Source of the DNA: Candidatus Brocadiia bacterium
Lineage (GTDB): Bacteria > Planctomycetota > Brocadiia > SM23-32
Assembly (NCBI GenBank): GCA_046538485.1
Contig: JBKHIT010000006.1
Span: 1 to 64,000 of the forward strand
Reading direction: 5' to 3'
Length of the DNA: 64,000 nt
Within the stretch, counting starts at the first letter, position 1. Each line of letters starts with the position of its first letter. A program made the position numbers and the translations under genes. Shown here piece by piece: positions 51,429 to 60,683 of this stretch. Below the pieces are notes generated by a model that did not search any database, was not told where the DNA came from, and saw only the letters and a program-made list of their open reading frames with translations.

Positions 51429-51595
51429 GCCTTCATTTGATTGTTCACGACACATTTATTTGCGACATTGTTATTCTATCCTTATTTGCTGCAAAGCATT
51501 ACGACGCCCTGGCAATTTCTACAGCAAACCAGTACGACAAAGGACTCTTTGTTAGAAAGAACGTAAGCGCGTTCTTTTTTATAACAATTTTCGGC

Positions 51596-52575
51596 GCGAG
51601 GAGAAACGTTTTTGTGTTGGCGGACTTTCCTCCAATTTGTCCGCCTCAAGTCCAGTTTCGCCCGCCGCTGGCGCGCTCAGCTGAACTCGAGTCTCAATCC
51701 CCCCGAGCGGGCTGGACTTCAGCCAGCGGCTGGAGTTCAGAACGCGGTGCATAAACCCAACGGTTCACTAACAAAACAGTCAACAATTGACAGCAGGTCA
51801 CGCAGGGAGATCTATCCTGCTATGAACCATTGCCACGAAACCGCGGATGCCAACCGATGCGCCGTCATAGTAGTGCAAGCATCTTGCTTGCAACTTTTCC
51901 GTTATTCTGCCAGAAGAGATCAGGTCAATTATCCGAACTCCATCTGTGACAGGCAGGAGTACCTGTTTAGCCCGGAGATACCCCTTCGTGGGTCATTGCG
52001 AGTCCATCGCGAGATGGGCGAAGCAATCTGGTCGTTTTTTCAGCCCAACAGCGAGATTGCCGCGGCGTCCCACAGCGCGGAACGCCTCGCAATGACATTG
52101 TGGGCGTGGATGGCCGATGTAGGGCACGCTAAATGCATACGCCCTGAAAGGGCAGCATATAACAGCCCGCCGGGGTGCAGAGGGCTGAAAGCCCTCGGAG
52201 CCCTGGGGTACAGGTATGCATTGAGAAAAAAGTGGGCTGAAGGTCCACCACAAAACGACGAAAGATAAAGGCAAAGCGGCGCCCCCCGTGGGGGATTCAA
52301 TGGGCAGACGTTCCTGCCATTTTAAATATCATTGGCATTGGCATACCCCCTTCCAGGTGGTCCACCGCGACTCGCGCCCCCGTGGGGGATTCAATTTTCG
52401 GAAATATCAGTTTCACCGGCAGAGCTTACTAAGGCCCTTGCAGCACCCCCGATGTAGTCTACCGCGACTCGCGGTCGCCGCACTCCACAGCCGGCTGGCG
52501 CCGGCGGGGTTCATGCACGACCCGGTGCTGATACGATTGTCCGCCACGCCGCATATTCCGTTCCGGAACAAACAA
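51596..52575. repeat. Composite palindromic repeat mosaic, locus 2 (modules F, GTAG-hairpin, E, A, B with two cassettes, C)
   Basis: 52141-52575 homologous to 415-756; GTAG-TGCAAGCA-TCT-TGCTTGCA at 51870-51892; 21-bp identity with 59926-59946. Confidence 0.85.
51992..52096. repeat. Empty GTCATTGCGAG...CTCGCAATGAC cruciform repeat (module E)
   Basis: 11-bp terminal IR, inner GCAATCT/AGATTGC IR; 52047-52097 is 48/51 identical to the reverse complement of 58000-58050. Confidence 0.9.
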
Positions 52576-52586
52576 CAAATGGCGCC

Positions 52587-54032
52587 TTATACAAACCGCA
52601 TACTGTAAAGGTCCGCATCCCGCATTACAAAACGAAGCCGCACCGGTTCTCCAGCCAATTCACTGACATCTGCCCCGTCTTCCCAACTCGCACAACCGGC
52701 GATCCGGTTCCCAAAAATATCCTCGGCTTCCTCCAGACTATAGCCCGGAACCGGATTTCCGTCCGGGTCGCACATTTCCACGCCCATGCTTCCCGCGGCA
52801 CTTGTGCTGTAATTCAGCTCCAGTTTCTTGCCGGAAAACACAAGCGGTTTGGTCAAAAACTCTCCACCGCTGTAGCGAGCCTGTACCGAGCAGAAACCGT
52901 CAAGCCGCAGGCTGTAGCGGCGCAGCTGGTTGCCGGGTTGGGCATAATGCTCATCCACATAAAAACTCATCTCTTCGGGCCCCGTCTGCACAACGCCATT
53001 GGCCGGATAATTGCATCTGGCCGACCAGTGGCTCGCTCCGATTCGCGGACGCACAAAAGCCTCCATAAACGTCCGGTCATACCACGAATGTCCCGGCCGC
53101 GTCGTCATGAAACAGGCGTCGCTGCAGGCCGACATCTGGGTTTCATGCACGCCAATCGCTTCCCCTTCTTCCTCGGTGATAGCCGGACGGTTTCCCATGA
53201 AGCGTGCCGGCAGAGCGACGTAAATGTGCGGCGCGCGGAAGTACGGTCGCGTCTGGTTAATATAGAACTGTTCGGCCGGTGCCGGTTGATCCGCGGTCCG
53301 ATAATCCATTAAAACCCCCGGTCCCCATGACCGAAAATCTTCACTGGTCGCTCGCATAATGGCCCGCAGGCGATCCGGATACGTCGTAGGACCTGTCTCT
53401 CCCGACTCAAAGCTGTCTTTCTCGACAAAAGTTCGGTAATAGGCGACGTATTTCTGCTCGGTCCCGCTCCAGAACCCAACGTTCTGGGAGTCGAAAGCGC
53501 CGTCGGTGATGATCGGTTCGTCTTGCAGCAACTCCCATTCAATTCCATCGGCGCTGACGAAAGCATAAAGCACCGGTTTCTTTCCACCATCTTTTTCTAT
53601 ACAGCCCCGGCTGAACGCCTTGAAACGTTCTTCAGCCGGCACGCCCGGCCGAGTATCGAGGAACGGTGCAAACGTGTGAGTGTACGGTTCTTCCGCAAAA
53701 AAAATGTTGTTGTCTTTTCTGCCATAGCATTCGTGCATGTCCAGGTTCGGACGCTCGAAATGGATGGCATCCGTGCTCTCCGCGACACAATAGGCCGCGT
53801 TTTCATTGGGCACCTGCCAGCCTCGGTAGTACATCAGATACCGGTCCCCATCGTGAATGATCGTATCATACAGCGAAAACGGACCTTCCCACGGTTTATT
53901 ATGATGCAGAACCACCTCCTGCGGCTGTGGTTCGGCCAGTTTAAGGAATGCACCATCGAGCGTATCAATCAGAAGATGATCGACGAACAGTTCGCGGCGC
54001 GAACCGATTTGAATCGGAGCGGTTTCTCCCAT
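52587..54032 (-). CDS. Glycoside-hydrolase-like five-bladed beta-propeller protein
   Basis: RELFVD, YLMYYRG, FDSQN, LRLDGF, DADLYSMRF; no signal peptide. Confidence 0.65.
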   Translation of the reverse strand: MGETAPIQIGSRRELFVDHLLIDTLDGAFLKLAEPQPQEVVLHHNKPWEGPFSLYDTIIHDGDRYLMYYRGWQVPNENAAYCVAESTDAIHFERPNLDMHECYGRKDNNIFFAEEPYTHTFAPFLDTRPGVPAEERFKAFSRGCIEKDGGKKPVLYAFVSADGIEWELLQDEPIITDGAFDSQNVGFWSGTEQKYVAYYRTFVEKDSFESGETGPTTYPDRLRAIMRATSEDFRSWGPGVLMDYRTADQPAPAEQFYINQTRPYFRAPHIYVALPARFMGNRPAITEEEGEAIGVHETQMSACSDACFMTTRPGHSWYDRTFMEAFVRPRIGASHWSARCNYPANGVVQTGPEEMSFYVDEHYAQPGNQLRRYSLRLDGFCSVQARYSGGEFLTKPLVFSGKKLELNYSTSAAGSMGVEMCDPDGNPVPGYSLEEAEDIFGNRIAGCASWEDGADVSELAGEPVRLRFVMRDADLYSMRFV

Positions 54033-54151
54033 GTCACATTTCTCCCTTATTCTGGAACCTCTGGTTTTTCTGCTCAATTTCTCTTCACCAGCGACATTCG
54101 ACGCTACGCCCCGGCAAAATACCAGAAGGCAATCCTGGGGTCAATACGGCG

Positions 54152-54187
54152 AAAGGACAGAAGGGACTTAAGAGACATAAGGGACAA
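54152..54187 (+). repeat. 9-bp tandem repeat x4 (AAGGGACNN)
   Basis: AAAGGACAG AAGGGACTT AAGAGACAT AAGGGACAA. Confidence 0.7.
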
Positions 54188-54336
54188 ATGAAAAGTGGCG
54201 CTAACCAGCACTTCACATCGGTGTTCATCTTTGGTTCTCCAATCCCTCCCATTGGCCGTTGCAGTTGCACTTTTTTGATTTCCCGAATAGCCTCTCGATA
54301 ACGCCACGAAAAAATTCGGAACGGAAGGATTTTATC

Positions 54337-57300
54337 ATGGACCCGCTCATACAAAAATCCATACCCCCGCTCACGGACCTGCGCGAAATGGTGCGACAGC
54401 ACATTGTTCGCCGCAGTCTGGCCTGCATGGAAAAGGCGGCCGAACGGCGCGAGGAAGCAACCCAATCTTCCGCAACTTTAAACACATACAAAACAGCCAT
54501 TCGGGAATCGATTCACCGTTTCTATGGCAACCTCCCGGCAGGTGAAACTCAACCAGCTCCGCAAGCGGAACTCGTTTCCACATTCTCACACAACGGGTTC
54601 CGAGTCGAAAATGTGCTTTTTGAATCTTTCCCCGGCTGGCAGGTCAACGCCAGCGTTTACGTCCCTACCGACTACGAACCGCCCTTCCCCGCAGTAATCG
54701 TCCCTGTCGGGCATTCCGGCAAACAGTTCGAGAGCTATCAGCTGCCCTGCCAGTATTTCGCCCGCAGCGGGTTCGTGGCAGTCTGTTTCGATCCGCCGGG
54801 ACAGAGAAGCGAGAAACAACCGGGGAACGACCATTTTAATGACGGCGTGCGCGACTATCCGCTCGGAAAAACCTCAAGCCGATATTTCGTGGCCGACGCA
54901 CTTCGCTGCATCGACTACCTCGCAACACGTGACGACATCGACATGACCCGCGGCATCGCTATGACGGGAGTCTCGGGGGGCGGCACGACCACCACGTTCG
55001 CCGTCGGGCTTGATGACCGGATCTCTGTGATCGGCCCCTCCTGCTGTGTCGCACCACTGGCCGCCATGGATATCACGCAATGCTATGCTGGTTGCCCCGA
55101 AACACACCAGTTCGGGCGCTACTCGGAAGGTATTGACGAAGTCGATCTACTGTGCGCCACCGCACCAAAGCCCTGTCTCCTGATGGCCGGCGAGACCGAC
55201 GAAGTCTTTCGCATCGAAGACAGCCGGCGACTCGCCGAAATAGTGGCCCGATTCTACGAATGCAATGATGCTGGAGATCGTTTCGAGTTCTTTGTCGATT
55301 CCGGCGGCCACGCTTACACGCTCCGCCAGGCCCGGGAATTCACCGGGTTCATGAACTGCTGGCTTTTAGATGAACCCGACCGACCTCTGCTCGAACTGGC
55401 CGAAGCCCGTTGCTCCATGTTGCCGTACAAAGAACTCCAATGTTCCCCTCGCACAGATATCAACATGCGAACGCGTGCGGTAGCCGAAGCCGACCAGTTG
55501 GCCGAACAACGAGAATTAAAACCTCAGCAAATTCGCGAGGCGGCGGCAGAGATAGCCGGGATTACGGGAAGTGTCCCCGTCCCCGACGCCGAAATCGGCG
55601 AACCGTTCCAGGTCTGGGTACACGATTGGCGCTCTTTGATGCTGCGACCCGAGCCCGACATCGAACTCCCGGCAACCTGGCTGACCGGACGCGGCCAACA
55701 GCCCGCCACAACCCTGCTGCATTTTGACGACAACGGACGCCACAGAATGTTGCGGCGGGGAGGCATTTTGACCGGCGCCATGCGGTTTATCGACCGCGAT
55801 CGACAACCGCTCAACCTTCTAACCGTCGACCTCCGTGGATGGGGCGATACAAGGCCCACCATGTACCCCTACGAAATGGCCGGCTGGGGAAGCGTTGATC
55901 GCTACGTAGCTTACGCAACGGCCGCACTCGGGGATCATATCATGGCGATGCGAATTCGCGATGCCCTCGGAACCCTTGCCTGGCTCAAAGAACAACCCGA
56001 GGTCGACCCGTCGCGCATCATCCTCACCGGATCCGGGCTTGGGAGCATGGTTGCCCTGCACGCCGCTGCTATCGATAAGAATATCGGAGCCGTTGTCACG
56101 TCGGAGGGCCTTTCTTCGTTTCGCAGCCTTCTGGAAGCCGCGAATTACCCCTGGCCCGCCGATACATTCATGCCGAACGCGCTGAATTTCTATGACCTGC
56201 CAGAACTCGCAGCAGCGCTGACATGCCCGGTGCGAGCCCACGCGCTCCGCGACGGAACGGGAGCCGCGGCCGGTGAAAAAGAATTGACAAAATGGCAGGA
56301 GCACGACCATATTGTGGCCAAAACCGAGGGGGAAAGCGGCAGTCTACGCAAAAGTATCGAAGAATTGGCCAACCGGTCCGAAGCGATCATAAATCTCCAG
56401 GAACGTCAGCCTTTTCTCTGGGTCAATCCCCACTGGCAACCGGCAAACCAGTGTCTCCACTCCCTTCCAATGGCACACAACGACATCGAAGAGGCGGAAG
56501 CACGCTGGCAAAGGTTTGCACCGCTCCTGGAAAAGCTTTTCCCGGAATTAAGAGAAACAAACGGTATCATCGAGTCGGACTTGCTGCCCGCGCCCTCCCT
56601 CGCGAAACGGATCTTGCCGCCTGATTCTGGCAAACTCATGGTTAAAGCGGATCATGCTCTGCCGGTCGCCGGTTCAATCAAAGCCCGCGGCGGGATCTAC
56701 GCGGTGCTCCATTTTGCTGAATCGGTCGCGCTGGAAAACGGTCTGCTTGAAAACAAGGAGGACGACTACCTGACATTATCCTCGGACGAAGCCAAGCAGG
56801 TCTTTCATACATATGAATTGAGCGTCGCCAGCACCGGGAATCTGGGTTTGAGTATCGGCATCACGGGTTCAGCGCTCGGTTTCCCCGTCACAGTTCACAT
56901 GTCCCACGAAGCCAAAGAATGGAAGAAGGAACGGTTGCGCCACCGAGATGTAAACGTCATCGAACACCAATCCGACTACACCGCCGCCTGCAAAGTGGCG
57001 CGTCAGGAAGCCGCCGATAACCCGCGAAATCATTTCATCGACGATGAGAATTCCGTCGAACTTTTCCTCGGCTACGCCACCGCGCTTCCCCGGTTGAAAC
57101 ACCAGCTGACGCAAGCCGGAATCACCATCGATTCCGAACACCCGCTCTTCATCTACCTGCCCTGCGGCGTGGGCGGCGCACCGGGAGGAATCACATTTGC
57201 CGCACGTCACGTCTTCGGAGACGACGCTCACTGCTTCTTTGTGGAACCGGTCGATGCGCCGTGTATGACTCTCGGGCTCCTCTCGGAGCGCCATTTCGAT

Positions 57301-57681
57301 ACGTCGATCTACGCTCTCGGATTGGACCTGGAAACAGACGCCGACGGGCTCGCGGTATCCAGACCCTCTCGTTTTGTGGGAAAACTGATGGTTCCCTTGC
57401 TGAGCGGATGCTGCACAATGGAAGATGAAGCGATGTACCGCCACGTCCTGGACCTCTACGAAACCGAAAGCATCGAAGTCGAGCCATCCGCCGCAGCCGG
57501 CTGCGTTGTCCCATGGATGCTTTTTGAGACCGATGCGGGCCGTCAGTATCTCGAACAACACACCCTGACGCCGTGTTTGCCGAATACCACACACCTCGTC
57601 TGGACGACCGGCGGGCTTTTTGTGCCTCCGAAACAACATCAGCACTTCCGCGACATCGCCCGGAAACAAAAGAAGAGGTAG
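54337..57681 (+). CDS. dsdA: Fusion: tandem alpha/beta-hydrolase (acetylxylan-esterase-like) + D-serine ammonia-lyase (DsdA)
   Basis: N-part GVSGGG, DLRGWGDT, GSGLG; C-part from about 56365 FLWVNP, GSIKARGG, STGNLG, LPCGVGGAPGG, DGLAV, EPSAAAG, WTTGG; single open frame. Confidence 0.85.
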   Translation: MDPLIQKSIPPLTDLREMVRQHIVRRSLACMEKAAERREEATQSSATLNTYKTAIRESIHRFYGNLPAGETQPAPQAELVSTFSHNGFRVENVLFESFPGWQVNASVYVPTDYEPPFPAVIVPVGHSGKQFESYQLPCQYFARSGFVAVCFDPPGQRSEKQPGNDHFNDGVRDYPLGKTSSRYFVADALRCIDYLATRDDIDMTRGIAMTGVSGGGTTTTFAVGLDDRISVIGPSCCVAPLAAMDITQCYAGCPETHQFGRYSEGIDEVDLLCATAPKPCLLMAGETDEVFRIEDSRRLAEIVARFYECNDAGDRFEFFVDSGGHAYTLRQAREFTGFMNCWLLDEPDRPLLELAEARCSMLPYKELQCSPRTDINMRTRAVAEADQLAEQRELKPQQIREAAAEIAGITGSVPVPDAEIGEPFQVWVHDWRSLMLRPEPDIELPATWLTGRGQQPATTLLHFDDNGRHRMLRRGGILTGAMRFIDRDRQPLNLLTVDLRGWGDTRPTMYPYEMAGWGSVDRYVAYATAALGDHIMAMRIRDALGTLAWLKEQPEVDPSRIILTGSGLGSMVALHAAAIDKNIGAVVTSEGLSSFRSLLEAANYPWPADTFMPNALNFYDLPELAAALTCPVRAHALRDGTGAAAGEKELTKWQEHDHIVAKTEGESGSLRKSIEELANRSEAIINLQERQPFLWVNPHWQPANQCLHSLPMAHNDIEEAEARWQRFAPLLEKLFPELRETNGIIESDLLPAPSLAKRILPPDSGKLMVKADHALPVAGSIKARGGIYAVLHFAESVALENGLLENKEDDYLTLSSDEAKQVFHTYELSVASTGNLGLSIGITGSALGFPVTVHMSHEAKEWKKERLRHRDVNVIEHQSDYTAACKVARQEAADNPRNHFIDDENSVELFLGYATALPRLKHQLTQAGITIDSEHPLFIYLPCGVGGAPGGITFAARHVFGDDAHCFFVEPVDAPCMTLGLLSERHFDTSIYALGLDLETDADGLAVSRPSRFVGKLMVPLLSGCCTMEDEAMYRHVLDLYETESIEVEPSAAAGCVVPWMLFETDAGRQYLEQHTLTPCLPNTTHLVWTTGGLFVPPKQHQHFRDIARKQKKR

Positions 57682-57765
57682 GTATCGACGATCAAGAATA
57701 GCATTTTCCGGCATCCGAGTGGTACGCATCTGGCGCCTTTTGCATCGGCCATTGAGAACTTACCT

Positions 57766-57853
57766 GTCATTGCGAGGCAGCGTAGCCCCGGCGATTTCGT
57801 TGTTGGGCCAAAAAACGACGAGATTGCTTCGTCACTGCGTTCCTCGCAATGAC
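57766..57853. repeat. Empty GTCATTGCGAGG...CCTCGCAATGAC cruciform repeat (module E)
   Basis: Perfect 12-bp terminal IR; inner 14-bp stem 57791-57804/57814-57827. Confidence 0.9.
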
Positions 57854-57999
57854 CGGGTGGCGTCTACCTGCCGTTGGGAGGGGTTAGTATGTCTGTATGA
57901 AGTACATTATCCTTAGCCCTTCGGGCTGACGCGTCATTATGAAGTATCCTTCCGTGATTTACGATGACATCGGCGTTGCATTAGCTGTCCACGCTCACA

Positions 58000-58430
58000 T
58001 GTCATTGCGAGGCGTTCCGCGCAGCGGGACGCTGCGGCAATCTCGCTGTTCCTGTTCAACAAGAAGCAGTAAACCATGGCAAAACCAATGTGGGTATACA
58101 TTATGACCAACAAAAGCAATACAACTATCTACACAGGTGTAACGAACAGCCTCCATCGCCGAGTACATGAACATCGCACGGGGAAAGGCAGTAGCTTCAC
58201 CAAGAGGTATAAGATTCGGAAGTTGGTGTATTACGAGTTCTACGAGAAACCGCAACGCGCAATTGAGCGAGAAAAACAAATCAAAGGTGGTTCACGTAAG
58301 ACTAAGATTCAACTCATCGAAACCGTTAATCCGCAATGGGAAGATCTTTACGATGAACAGTCGGCCGACATTACGCCGATTGAAGCAAAACGACGAGATT
58401 AATTCGTCACTGCGTTCCTCGCGACGACCG
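58000..58430 (+). mobile_element. Module-E repeat carrying a GIY-YIG gene between its arms (putative autonomous copy)
   Basis: Left arm 58000-58050, gene 58076-58402, right arm 58387-58430 (40/44 identical to 57812-57855); mobility is inferred. Confidence 0.6.
58076..58402 (+). CDS. Small stand-alone GIY-YIG nuclease
   Basis: VYIMTN..TIYTGVTNSLHRRVHEH, FTKRY, LVYYE, AIEREKQIK, NPQWEDL. Confidence 0.93.
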   Translation: MAKPMWVYIMTNKSNTTIYTGVTNSLHRRVHEHRTGKGSSFTKRYKIRKLVYYEFYEKPQRAIEREKQIKGGSRKTKIQLIETVNPQWEDLYDEQSADITPIEAKRRD

Positions 58431-58483
58431 TATATGAGTCACCTGGAGGCAAAGTCAACTGCCAAACCAAAGGAGAAACAACA

Positions 58484-59506
58484 ATGGATCAGAAAGCCCT
58501 CGTTTACAAAGGATACCCCCCGGATCATTGTTGCTGCGATAGCACTTTGCGGATTCTACCAAACGGCGAATTCGCCGCCTTTTTCATGACCGGCGGCCTG
58601 CGAGAACCGGACATGCGAAATCATATTGCGCTCTGCCGTTCCACCAACCCCGGACTCGCCTGGTCTCACGAACCAGAAATCGTTTTGCAGAGCAACGACC
58701 GGGCCTGTCTCCTCTCCGAAGTTTATGTTGACAACGACCGCATCGTCGTCCAGGTCACCACCCACGATGGAAGTTTTGGGGACTGGCGCAATTTCACCAT
58801 TGAAAGTCGGGACAACGCCGGGACCTGGAGCGAACCAGAACCTTTCGATCCGCTGCCGCAACGCGGATTCGTGCGCAACCGTTATGTCGCTTCCTGGGGC
58901 GAGTGGTACCTGCCACTTCAACATTATGAAACCCACGGAAATGCGGAGGTCGCCCCCCAGACCGACGGTTCGTTCAAACGCCCCCGCAACGGGGTTCTGA
59001 TAAGTTCAGACCGGGGGCAGTCGTGGACAAAATCCGAGACCGTAACCGGTGCGAACGCCTGGTCAGAAAACAATGTCGTCGAACTCTCCGATGGTTCCAT
59101 GGCCATGCTCATCCGCTCCGACGGCGCAGGTTGTCTGAAGCGCACGGATTCCGAGGACCGCGGACGCAGCTGGACCCCGCCGCGTCCCACCGGGATCCCG
59201 AACCCTGGAAGTAAAGCGCGTCTCTACCGTTTCAGTGACGGACGCATACTGCTCGTCCACAACCCAAATTCGGAGACATCCCATCCGAACGCCCGCCCGC
59301 AGGCCGCCTGTCAGCGCAATCCGCTTTCAATCTGGATTTCGGACGACGATATGTGCACGTGGGGATATAAACGCGATCTTACAGATTTCCCCGGTATGCT
59401 CGCCTACCCCGACGGCATCCTCGATGAGGAGAACAACATCCTGCACATCGCCTTCGACTACAACCGCCACGACGTTATCTACTGGGGTGCCGAACTTCCG
59501 GGCTAA
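58484..59506 (+). CDS. Sialidase-like (BNR/Asp-box) protein
   Basis: Asp-boxes SRDNAGTW, SSDRGQSW, SEDRGRSW, SDDDMCTW; RNPL and YP motifs. Confidence 0.85.
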   Translation: MDQKALVYKGYPPDHCCCDSTLRILPNGEFAAFFMTGGLREPDMRNHIALCRSTNPGLAWSHEPEIVLQSNDRACLLSEVYVDNDRIVVQVTTHDGSFGDWRNFTIESRDNAGTWSEPEPFDPLPQRGFVRNRYVASWGEWYLPLQHYETHGNAEVAPQTDGSFKRPRNGVLISSDRGQSWTKSETVTGANAWSENNVVELSDGSMAMLIRSDGAGCLKRTDSEDRGRSWTPPRPTGIPNPGSKARLYRFSDGRILLVHNPNSETSHPNARPQAACQRNPLSIWISDDDMCTWGYKRDLTDFPGMLAYPDGILDEENNILHIAFDYNRHDVIYWGAELPG

Positions 59507-59808
59507 TTACTTTTTTGGCGCCAGGTCTCGGATCCCGTCCATAATTTTTCGTCTCAAGGGTACGATTCACCGTATGCCACACTGCAGCAATTGAGGCAGC
59601 CCTTCAGACCGCGGCGGGTTCGTGCAACGACACGTCAAACTTAATAGTCGATGGCACCGTACGCTAAATGGATACGGCCCGTCTATGGCACTATTCGACT
59701 TCTGTCCGCCAAACCAGCGTACGAAATCTATCAGGAAGGCAGTTGTAAGACCCAGAAACATATTAATGTGGGCTAAAAGTCCACCACATATCATATCGAA
59801 CACCAATG

Positions 59809-60683
59809 CGGGTCTGACGACTCGGCCCACAAGCTGGAGAGCCTGTGCTACATGCGTACTTCGTGCCTGTCAGGGGTCTGGCTGCGAGGAGAAAAGTTTT
59901 TTGTTCTCCCGTGCACTTCTGCAAGATTTGTCCGCCTCAAGTCCAGCAAGATGCCTGCCGGTACTCTGACGGCTGGCTATGCCCGGCCGCGAGGCATCCT
60001 GCCCGTACCCGTTCATCCGCGGCTACCTCTGCGTCGCCCCCTTCGGGGCTTTTATGTTATGGGACCGATCTGACCCGGAGCTTGCGCGCCAAAAGACAGC
60101 GCGACCGCGCACCGGGCTAGCCCTGCACCGCCCACTCGTGGGCTTTGCTTGCCGGGCCGTTAGTCGACCCAAGCGGGTCAGCTCTGCACGGCCCACTTCC
60201 TGAGCATCCCTGTGATGATTTGAGCCCCTGAGAAGGGGCGATCGCAGACATAGCCCGGGGCGCGCCCGTTGTGCGGGCAAGCCCCGGGACCCGCACGCCT
60301 CACATAATTTCCAAACCCCGAAGGGGTGACGCAGCACCGCTTTTACTTTCGTCCACAGAGATAAAATGTCCGGCGAAAAATTATAGGAACCTTTTTTCTT
60401 GATTTCAGGCTTATCGGATTGCCGTAGCATCTGAGATTTTCATACCAATTGGAAGCGGCGCCCCCTGTGGGGGATTCGATGGGGCAGACGTGCCTGCCAT
60501 TTTAAATATCATTGGTATTGGCATACCCCCTTCCAGGTAGTCCACCGCGACTCGCGGTCGGCGGCGGGGTTCATACACGAACCGGGGGTGATACGATTGT
60601 CAGGCACACACCCCATTCGGTTTCGGATCAAACGGTAACGACTCCGGGCCTAACGACCCGGTCCACAGGCTGGAGAGCCTGTG
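59809..60683. repeat. Composite palindromic repeat mosaic, locus 3 (D', F, A-like, B, C, D)
   Basis: 60454-60683 homologous to 547-790; 59809-59852 second D copy ending GCCTGTGCTACA; GCCCCTTCGGGGC and ACCCCGAAGGGGT hairpins. Confidence 0.85.

Follow-up and report, generated by a model that had tools for sequence, protein, structure and literature searches.

Ssn nucleases are single-domain GIY-YIG proteins (cd10448) that cut single-stranded DNA (ssDNA) a few bases 5' of the hairpin flanking their genes (Chenal et al., Nat Commun 2025, PMC11893778). The 2025 paper introduced them as the first ssDNA endonucleases with sequence specificity; four enzymes were assayed in print, on their NTS/SRM-type repeats, and the authors expected many more specificities (PMC11893778). 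The pairing of nuclease and repeat, the IS-like repeat-gene-repeat layout (NTS-ssnA-NTS) and the analogy with REP palindromes and the domestication of their RAYT transposases are all set out in that paper. A second group, the CGTC-tagged REPs, comprises four families with 8-9-bp stems and 4-5-nt loops, which according to the accessible part of Di Nocera et al. (2013, PMC3733652) lack a dedicated transposase and do not flank transposase genes, and for which no nuclease partner is named.

We analyzed a window of 64,000 nucleotides from the genome of a Candidatus Brocadiia bacterium, in which a small GIY-YIG gene lies between two arms of a hairpin repeat. The original prediction had left it undecided whether such a pairing had been described before; novelty is not supported, since the pairing, its layout and the RAYT analogy are all in print. 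As with Ssn and NTS/SRM in Neisseria meningitidis (SsnA), the protein is a single-domain GIY-YIG enzyme of the ca. 95-110 aa kind with identical catalytic residues, the gene sits between converging tagged hairpins, and many gene-less copies occur across the genome. The repeat unit is built from a GTC tag, an outer stem of 5 bp (ATTGC/GCAAT), a purine-rich bulge, a long and variable inner hairpin and a short tail; stem, bulge and inner hairpin set it apart from NTS and SRM. Judged from sequence, the kind of system is known, and what appears to be new is this bulged repeat as an Ssn partner, a signature in the protein, and the carriage of repeat dimers by IS66-like mini-elements. None of the three was found in print by a literature search that had figures, some supplements and subscription journals outside its scope, and the repeat motif was absent from 12 of the 14 supplements of Chenal et al. 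and from four supplements of Di Nocera et al.

The reading that we favor, with a probability of about 0.75, is that an Ssn enzyme cuts one folded unit on exposed ssDNA, that the cassette moves horizontally, and that gene-less dimers arise and are in part amplified by an IS66-like mini-element. The gene would encode a site-specific ssDNA nuclease whose cognate repeat is the bulged hairpin. As proposed here from the behavior of the Neisseria enzyme, a unit would fold when its strand is exposed by replication, recombination or DNA uptake, and the enzyme would bind that unit in a single orientation, with a cut a few bases 5' of the tag. As a whole, the repeat-gene-repeat cassette would move between distant bacteria and leave gene-less dimers, probably by internal deletion; in this genome a dimer would then have become the cargo of an IS66-like mini-element, a DDE-type element that would account for roughly half of the dispersed dimers. 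Because one oriented unit suffices in Neisseria, where dsDNA and RNA are left uncut (PMC11893778), the recognized form is, by analogy, more likely a single ssDNA hairpin than a cruciform dimer.

The nuclease gene and its flanking repeats

By domain content and alignment, the 108-aa protein is a member of the Ssn family of single-strand DNA nucleases. PF01541 is its sole domain (E 4e-16, profile search), as in the small proteins (<150 aa, a single GIY-YIG domain) that define the family. Residues Y8, Y19, R29, H33 and E66 are all intact; Y8, Y19 and E66 align with the tested catalytic residues Y6, Y17 and E64 of SsnA at a constant offset and with the same spacing, and they are conserved in at least 98-99% of 195 homologues. 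Homology to SsnA (E<1e-10 over 75% of the length) was judged by a proxy, in which NTS-class proteins rather than Neisseria SsnA were aligned, and all 14 of those collected are 43-55% identical to the window protein, with E at most 5e-21. The placement is further supported by P. terephthalicicum JT, a genome scored as ssnA-positive and cd10448-positive in the accessible part of Supplementary Data 4 of Chenal et al. (PMC11893778), where the 108-aa query has one match at E<=1e-8, which falls in the window protein's own clade. No NCBIfam family matched the protein, a PDB sequence search returned only the distant GIY-YIG proteins 1zg2 and 1ywl, and a single-sequence structure model (pLDDT 55) was uninformative. 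The gene is present in a single copy in the assembly, which is 88% complete.

Table 1. Features of the nuclease locus and of the gene-less dimers, in window coordinates
Feature	Position	Strand	Description
Predicted Ssn-family single-domain GIY-YIG nuclease gene	58076..58402	+	108 aa, intact ORF
Left repeat unit, gene-bearing copy	58001..58044	+	Intact; GTC tag, 5-bp outer stem, purine bulge, inner hairpin, short tail
Right repeat unit, gene-bearing copy	58395..58428	-	Decayed, 4 changes; holds the gene's TAA stop codon
Flank preceding left unit	57973..58000	+	28 nt, matches sequence before A arms inside IS66-like mini-elements
Gene-less head-to-head dimer	57766..57853	.	Left arm decayed (GCAATC arm lost), right arm intact
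Probable decayed mini-element left end	57722..57765	+	44 nt before tag, 3/13 mismatches
44-nt direct repeat, 91% identical to 58387-58430	57812..57855	+	Dimer's right arm duplicated beyond the gene
Gene-less head-to-head dimer	51992..52096	.	B arm, 26-nt spacer, A arm; form that dominates in the genome
IS66-like mini-element, 182 nt, enclosing the 51992-52096 dimer	51959..52140	.	13-nt inverted ends starting GTA; target duplication absent

Three copies of the repeat had been described in the window, the third with its arms bracketing an intact-looking gene. Inverted pairs are indeed present at both gene-less sites and a third surrounds the gene, but two of the six arms are decayed; the gene and its left unit are intact, but the right arm is not. 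The left unit is an A arm, the commonest arm type among the genome's dimers. The right unit carries two changes in the tag and two in the GCAATC arm, so that its outer stem is unable to pair, and the gene-bearing copy may have lost mobility through this decay. No intact mini-element end was found at the gene-bearing copy, and no mini-element right end at the 57766-57853 dimer. The 11-mer tag has six matches in the window at up to one mismatch, five of them exact, against a mean of 1.5 in shuffled sequence, where six or more were reached in 0/100 shuffles. Folded as ssDNA and compared with shuffles, the whole dimers reach z scores of -4.1 and -3.1, and single units mostly do not exceed shuffled folding (-1.1 to -1.9 in four of six, -2.9 in one and +1.3 in one). 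Over 51500-60600, Rfam gave a single sub-threshold match, to Acido-Lenti-1 RNA (28 bits against a cut-off of 37), at 52140-52174 on the minus strand, in a repeat beside the mini-element.

These features bear on an alternative in which the gene is a passive or decaying passenger, the repeats being host elements (RNA hairpins or recombination spots) that mini-elements and gene conversion have dispersed, with an enzyme no longer active on them here. Such a history would suit the decayed right arm, the C-terminus that runs ca. 12 residues beyond the usual end and stops within that arm, the absence of any sigma-70-like promoter match for the gene, and the persistence of repeats in relatives without it. 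The intact reading frame and catalytic residues, the intact left unit of the commonest type, and a linkage of repeat to gene that holds across the clade all argue against it, and we regard it as quite improbable.

Linkage of the bulged repeat to a nuclease clade

The homologue loci that we examined are the best 80 of at least 424 confirmed matches, so that the linkage figures describe the nearest relatives only. Within this set, a bulged unit is present at 68/80 loci. As had been predicted, the arms are enriched near homologous genes: among the 58 loci with full flanks, the repeat lies within 300 nt of the gene at 47, versus 2/58 control positions (windows 1.2-1.5 kb from the gene, with counts of 2 and 0). 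Like the window gene, whose right arm is decayed, 38 of the 58 genes have oriented GTC-tagged hairpins on both sides, 34 of these pairs converging. Across the 80 loci (best 80 of at least 424), the commonest outer stem was seen 57 times; four variants retain pairing through changes on both sides (at 4, 4, 1 and 1 loci, with a doubly changed form in 2), and ca. 30 locus-level variants are not fully paired.

The repeat also tracks the protein tree. The tree holds 195 proteins from 204 loci (8 partial, stop-containing or edge sequences and 1 identical sequence were left out) and comes from a quick search on 91 columns in which no starred branch holds the window's protein. The predicted congruence of arms and protein is borne out on this tree, where the 81 proteins with the bulged repeat need five changes, against a shuffled mean of 62 with 0/500 shuffles as low. 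A branch with 96% SH-aLRT support separates the NTS, simple-hairpin and one other group from two bulged classes. Across that branch, NTS and simple-hairpin proteins have W at both positions 72 and 76, whereas the window protein carries the signature of the bulged-repeat clade, G72 together with a residue other than W at 76. G stands at position 72 in 75/81 proteins with this repeat versus 0/77 others, and position 76 is non-W in 106/106 bulged-class proteins versus 1/52 others. An independent-pairs test for the two residues found one pair on starred branches; thus, they are a clade marker and a specificity hypothesis rather than a demonstrated case of co-evolution. Hosts of the window protein's clade span more than ten phyla, and one Bradyrhizobium genome encodes paralogues with three different repeat types. 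Thus, the repeat follows the enzyme and not the host. A large cross-phylum branch of Ssn proteins is defined in this way, with its exact repeat and two candidate specificity residues.

The published degenerate SRM pattern had no match within 300 nt at any of the 80 loci (best 80 of at least 424), and its 26 matches genome-wide include none that overlaps a unit. As an Ssn partner, the bulged repeat therefore falls outside SRM as published. For two genomes with genes of the window clade, the accessible part of the published data lists SRM enrichments of 1.6 and 0.7 (PMC11893778). The published census missed the bulged repeat. Two further classes, a second bulged one (GTCATTCTGAG type) and a long-hairpin one (GTCATTCTAGGG type), flank Ssn subclades of their own, the latter comprising 11 proteins on one 99% branch. 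Loci with the GTCATTCTGAG/GTCATTCTAGGG classes include L088, L090-L092, L096, L098, L128 and L129; the published-pattern search had no match at these loci, nor in most of the long-hairpin class.

Among palindromic elements of Rickettsia, RPE-7 may belong to the same repeat class as the bulged unit. An ATGAC end motif, the reverse of the tag, is common to the unit and to RPE-4, -6 and -7 (PMC3767692). The bulged repeat may also be one of the CGTC-tagged families of Di Nocera et al., which we compared by their described features. Going by the accessible part of that paper (PMC3733652), the two have in common the CGTC/TGTC tag (of 215 tags here, 118 have C and 77 have T), stems starting with AT, a short tail, head-to-head heterodimers, conserved spacers, no linked transposase, and some dimers that lie inside larger palindromes without an empty form.

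As in the REP/RAYT systems (TnpA-REP, REPtrons, REPINs), an enzyme gene lies between its own palindromes, and gene-less dimers and clusters occur elsewhere; unlike in those systems, with their HUH/Y1 enzymes and GTAG-type tags, the enzyme here is a GIY-YIG hydrolase, and the Y1 genes of the genome go with other repeats. The repeat could in principle be a classical REP served by a Y1 transposase (RAYT) elsewhere in the genome, the GIY-YIG gene having landed in it by chance. A profile search did find nine Y1_Tnp matches in the genome, although, as originally noted, none in the window. The nearest unit is at least 24 kb from four of the nine, and the other five have no unit on their contig. The three Y1 genes with the best matches lie between repeats of another family, and a search with seven of the nine Y1 proteins gave a Y1-like match at one of the 80 nuclease loci (best 80 of at least 424), a locus with another repeat class. 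CGTC-tagged repeats are likewise reported not to flank transposase genes, as far as the accessible part of PMC3733652 goes. Set against the linkage of repeat to nuclease, a RAYT origin is scarcely credible, and the original prediction that the repeat partners a GIY-YIG clade rather than a Y1 transposase holds. The pairing had been held vulnerable to two outcomes, a lack of flank enrichment and a repeat that co-occurs with Y1 instead; neither was observed.

Gene-less dimers and their IS66-like carriers

A scan of the 5.19-Mb genome, which had been suggested as a check, found the repeat genome-wide and not just locally, with 95 exact tags, 69 strict units (0 in a reversed control), 142 loose units (8 in the control) and 34 head-to-head dimers. 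The dimers are heterodimers with a conserved 26-nt spacer. Both spacer ends equal the stretches that adjoin the arms on their gene side in the gene-bearing copy, which is what derivatives formed by internal deletion should show; in a relative of another genus, one dimer has these spacer ends around a longer middle. From this arrangement, the gene-less dimers are probably internal-deletion products of the cassette, the alternative being that the gene entered a dimer.

No empty site for a bare unit or dimer was found among 102 clusters in the same genome, one mini-element without its A unit apart, which a 4-nt microhomology deletion explains equally well. A comparison of filled and empty forms of the window locus found no orthologous site among 60 relatives. 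Fifteen of the genomes searched have at least 10 exact units; the gene, flanked by the repeat, is present in seven, and none was found in eight, which include G056 (1 contig) and G050 (4 contigs). Gaps in the assemblies could account for some of these gene-less genomes, less so for G056 and G050. These eight genomes are evidence against a strict dependence of the repeat on the nuclease.

Conservation around the dimers continues 33-44 nt beyond the tags, up to 13-nt inverted ends that start with GTA. Both ends are recognizable at 20/38 dimers, including the one at 51992-52096, against a background of 5.7% per side; the remaining 18 lack two recognizable ends. Target duplications of 8 bp, matching at 6/8 or more, flank 5 of the 20 mini-elements (control mean 0.2, maximum 3 in 2000 shuffles), and another scan showed two more, at 8/8 and 7/8; the other 15, the window's among them, have no clear duplication. 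Empty target sites were found for two elements, one dimer-bearing and one other. The same ends also enclose a different repeat in this genome and, in three relatives, unrelated palindromic cargo with duplications of 8/8, 6/8 and 8/8; two of these three relatives have no exact unit of the bulged repeat.

IS66 ends start with GTAAGCG, and the family makes 8-bp duplications, according to the accessible part of PMC11946415. The mini-elements that carry dimers have the inverted GTA(A) ends and, in some copies, the 8-bp duplication by which IS66 is recognized. They resemble IS66 and its miniature derivatives, from whose ends theirs differ by one letter; unlike that family, they have interiors of REP-like dimers of several unrelated kinds, and no intact transposase with these ends was found. 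An IS66-type enzyme would be their presumed mobilizer. The assembly (88% complete) holds one decayed PF03050 fragment as its only trace of an IS66 transposase, and no intact IS66 was recognized, by eye among the longest open frames, beside nine single ends in relatives. IS630, suggested by TA at both ends, was dropped as the carrier when the 8-bp duplications appeared; its only trace is a DDE_3 fragment where a contig ends. Mini-elements free of cargo were looked for and not found, so that capture of a dimer and insertion of units into a mini-element look alike. In this lineage, REP-like repeats may be carried generally by the IS66-like mini-element family.

Copies with varied REP-like palindromic cargo lie at window 51959-52140 and at G000 C26:70130-70446, C3:22259-22575, C92:310-624 and C69:4617-4743, and mini-elements with the same 13-nt ends are also found at L249, L250 and L253. 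A 746-nt intergenic stretch that includes the window's mini-element (51636-52376) is 95% identical to G000 C44:111281-112018, on another contig, and was thus duplicated as a block. Intergenic DNA, both genome-wide and at 52140-52400 and 59800-60560 of the window, is pieced together from at least four other repeat families with ca. 50-250 motif matches each, inside which the mini-elements often lie; one of these families is similar to the repeats on either side of the Y1 genes on C127 and C7.

Possible traces of movement at nuclease loci

The nuclease had also been predicted to spread the empty copies itself. That part is weakened, because about half of the dimers lie in mini-elements with DDE-type ends and 8/15 repeat-rich genomes gave no cognate nuclease; an insertion in the closed genome G044 keeps a nuclease-driven route open. 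REP-like dimers can thus owe their spread to an unrelated DDE mini-element, which bears on any pattern of an autonomous element plus empty copies.

In G044, one unit lies inside the cognate gene at ca. codon 51 (loci L101, L102 and L111). Compared with the uninterrupted gene in G044 and G055, the inserted piece starts 3 nt 5' of GTC, and no target duplication flanks it. A derivative made of a unit, the 3' half of the gene and an inverted unit is present at 15/19 fetched loci; most share outer repeats of ca. 100 nt, which suggests that they spread as a larger composite. At L103-L118 of the same genome, the half-gene dimer has on each side a direct copy of another ca. 100-nt repeat, itself starting with a GTC-tagged hairpin; at L112 the inner part runs opposite to the outer repeats, and L117 has tandem copies. 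Direct repeats scoring at least 30 flank the gene in 20/53 loci versus 0/106 cross-locus controls; on this scale, the 44-nt repeat of the window reaches 28. At 7/80 loci (best 80 of at least 424), there are tandem partial 5' ends. Upstream of the intact gene at L070 is a duplicated stretch of 227 nt that takes in the gene's 3' end, a trace of tandem cassette duplication. The in-gene insertion, the half-gene dimers and the direct repeats fit nick-primed repair, and they also fit ordinary recombination among repeats.

These traces are what would be expected if the nuclease were the mobilizer of an autonomous element, with gene-less units and dimers as non-autonomous copies made by nick and repair at the tag end. 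The G044 insert starts near the SsnA cut position, and close homologues come from more than ten phyla, which would suit such an element as well as the half-gene derivatives, the long direct repeats and the tandem partial ends do. The G044 insertion, however, is one event, and the 15 derivatives appear to have spread within a larger composite; the missing empty sites and the repeat-rich genomes without a cognate gene count against it too. To our knowledge, GIY-YIG enzymes hydrolyze DNA and form no covalent intermediate for rejoining, which also speaks against it, and we consider a mobilizing nuclease unlikely.

A bolder version can be put forward tentatively, as a possibility somewhat stronger than the last: the bulged-hairpin Ssn would be a selfish element that pastes its own repeat without a transposase, and so the missing mobilizer of the CGTC-tagged REPs, with residues 72 and 76 setting the hairpin shape that is read and IS66-like mini-elements amplifying the products later. 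The end produced by the cut a few bases 5' of the tag would be joined to a new site during repair, and this would account for the G044 in-gene insertion, the tandem partial copies and the long flanking duplications. The reading that we favor, in which the enzyme cuts a folded unit and the dimers owe part of their numbers to the mini-element, takes cleavage of the bulged repeat and the position of the cut from the Neisseria enzyme, and both would be expected to hold here.

A 1140-aa ORF on the plus strand (window 54259-57681) combines acetyl-xylan-esterase-like alpha/beta hydrolase domains with a complete D-serine ammonia-lyase in one apparent fusion.
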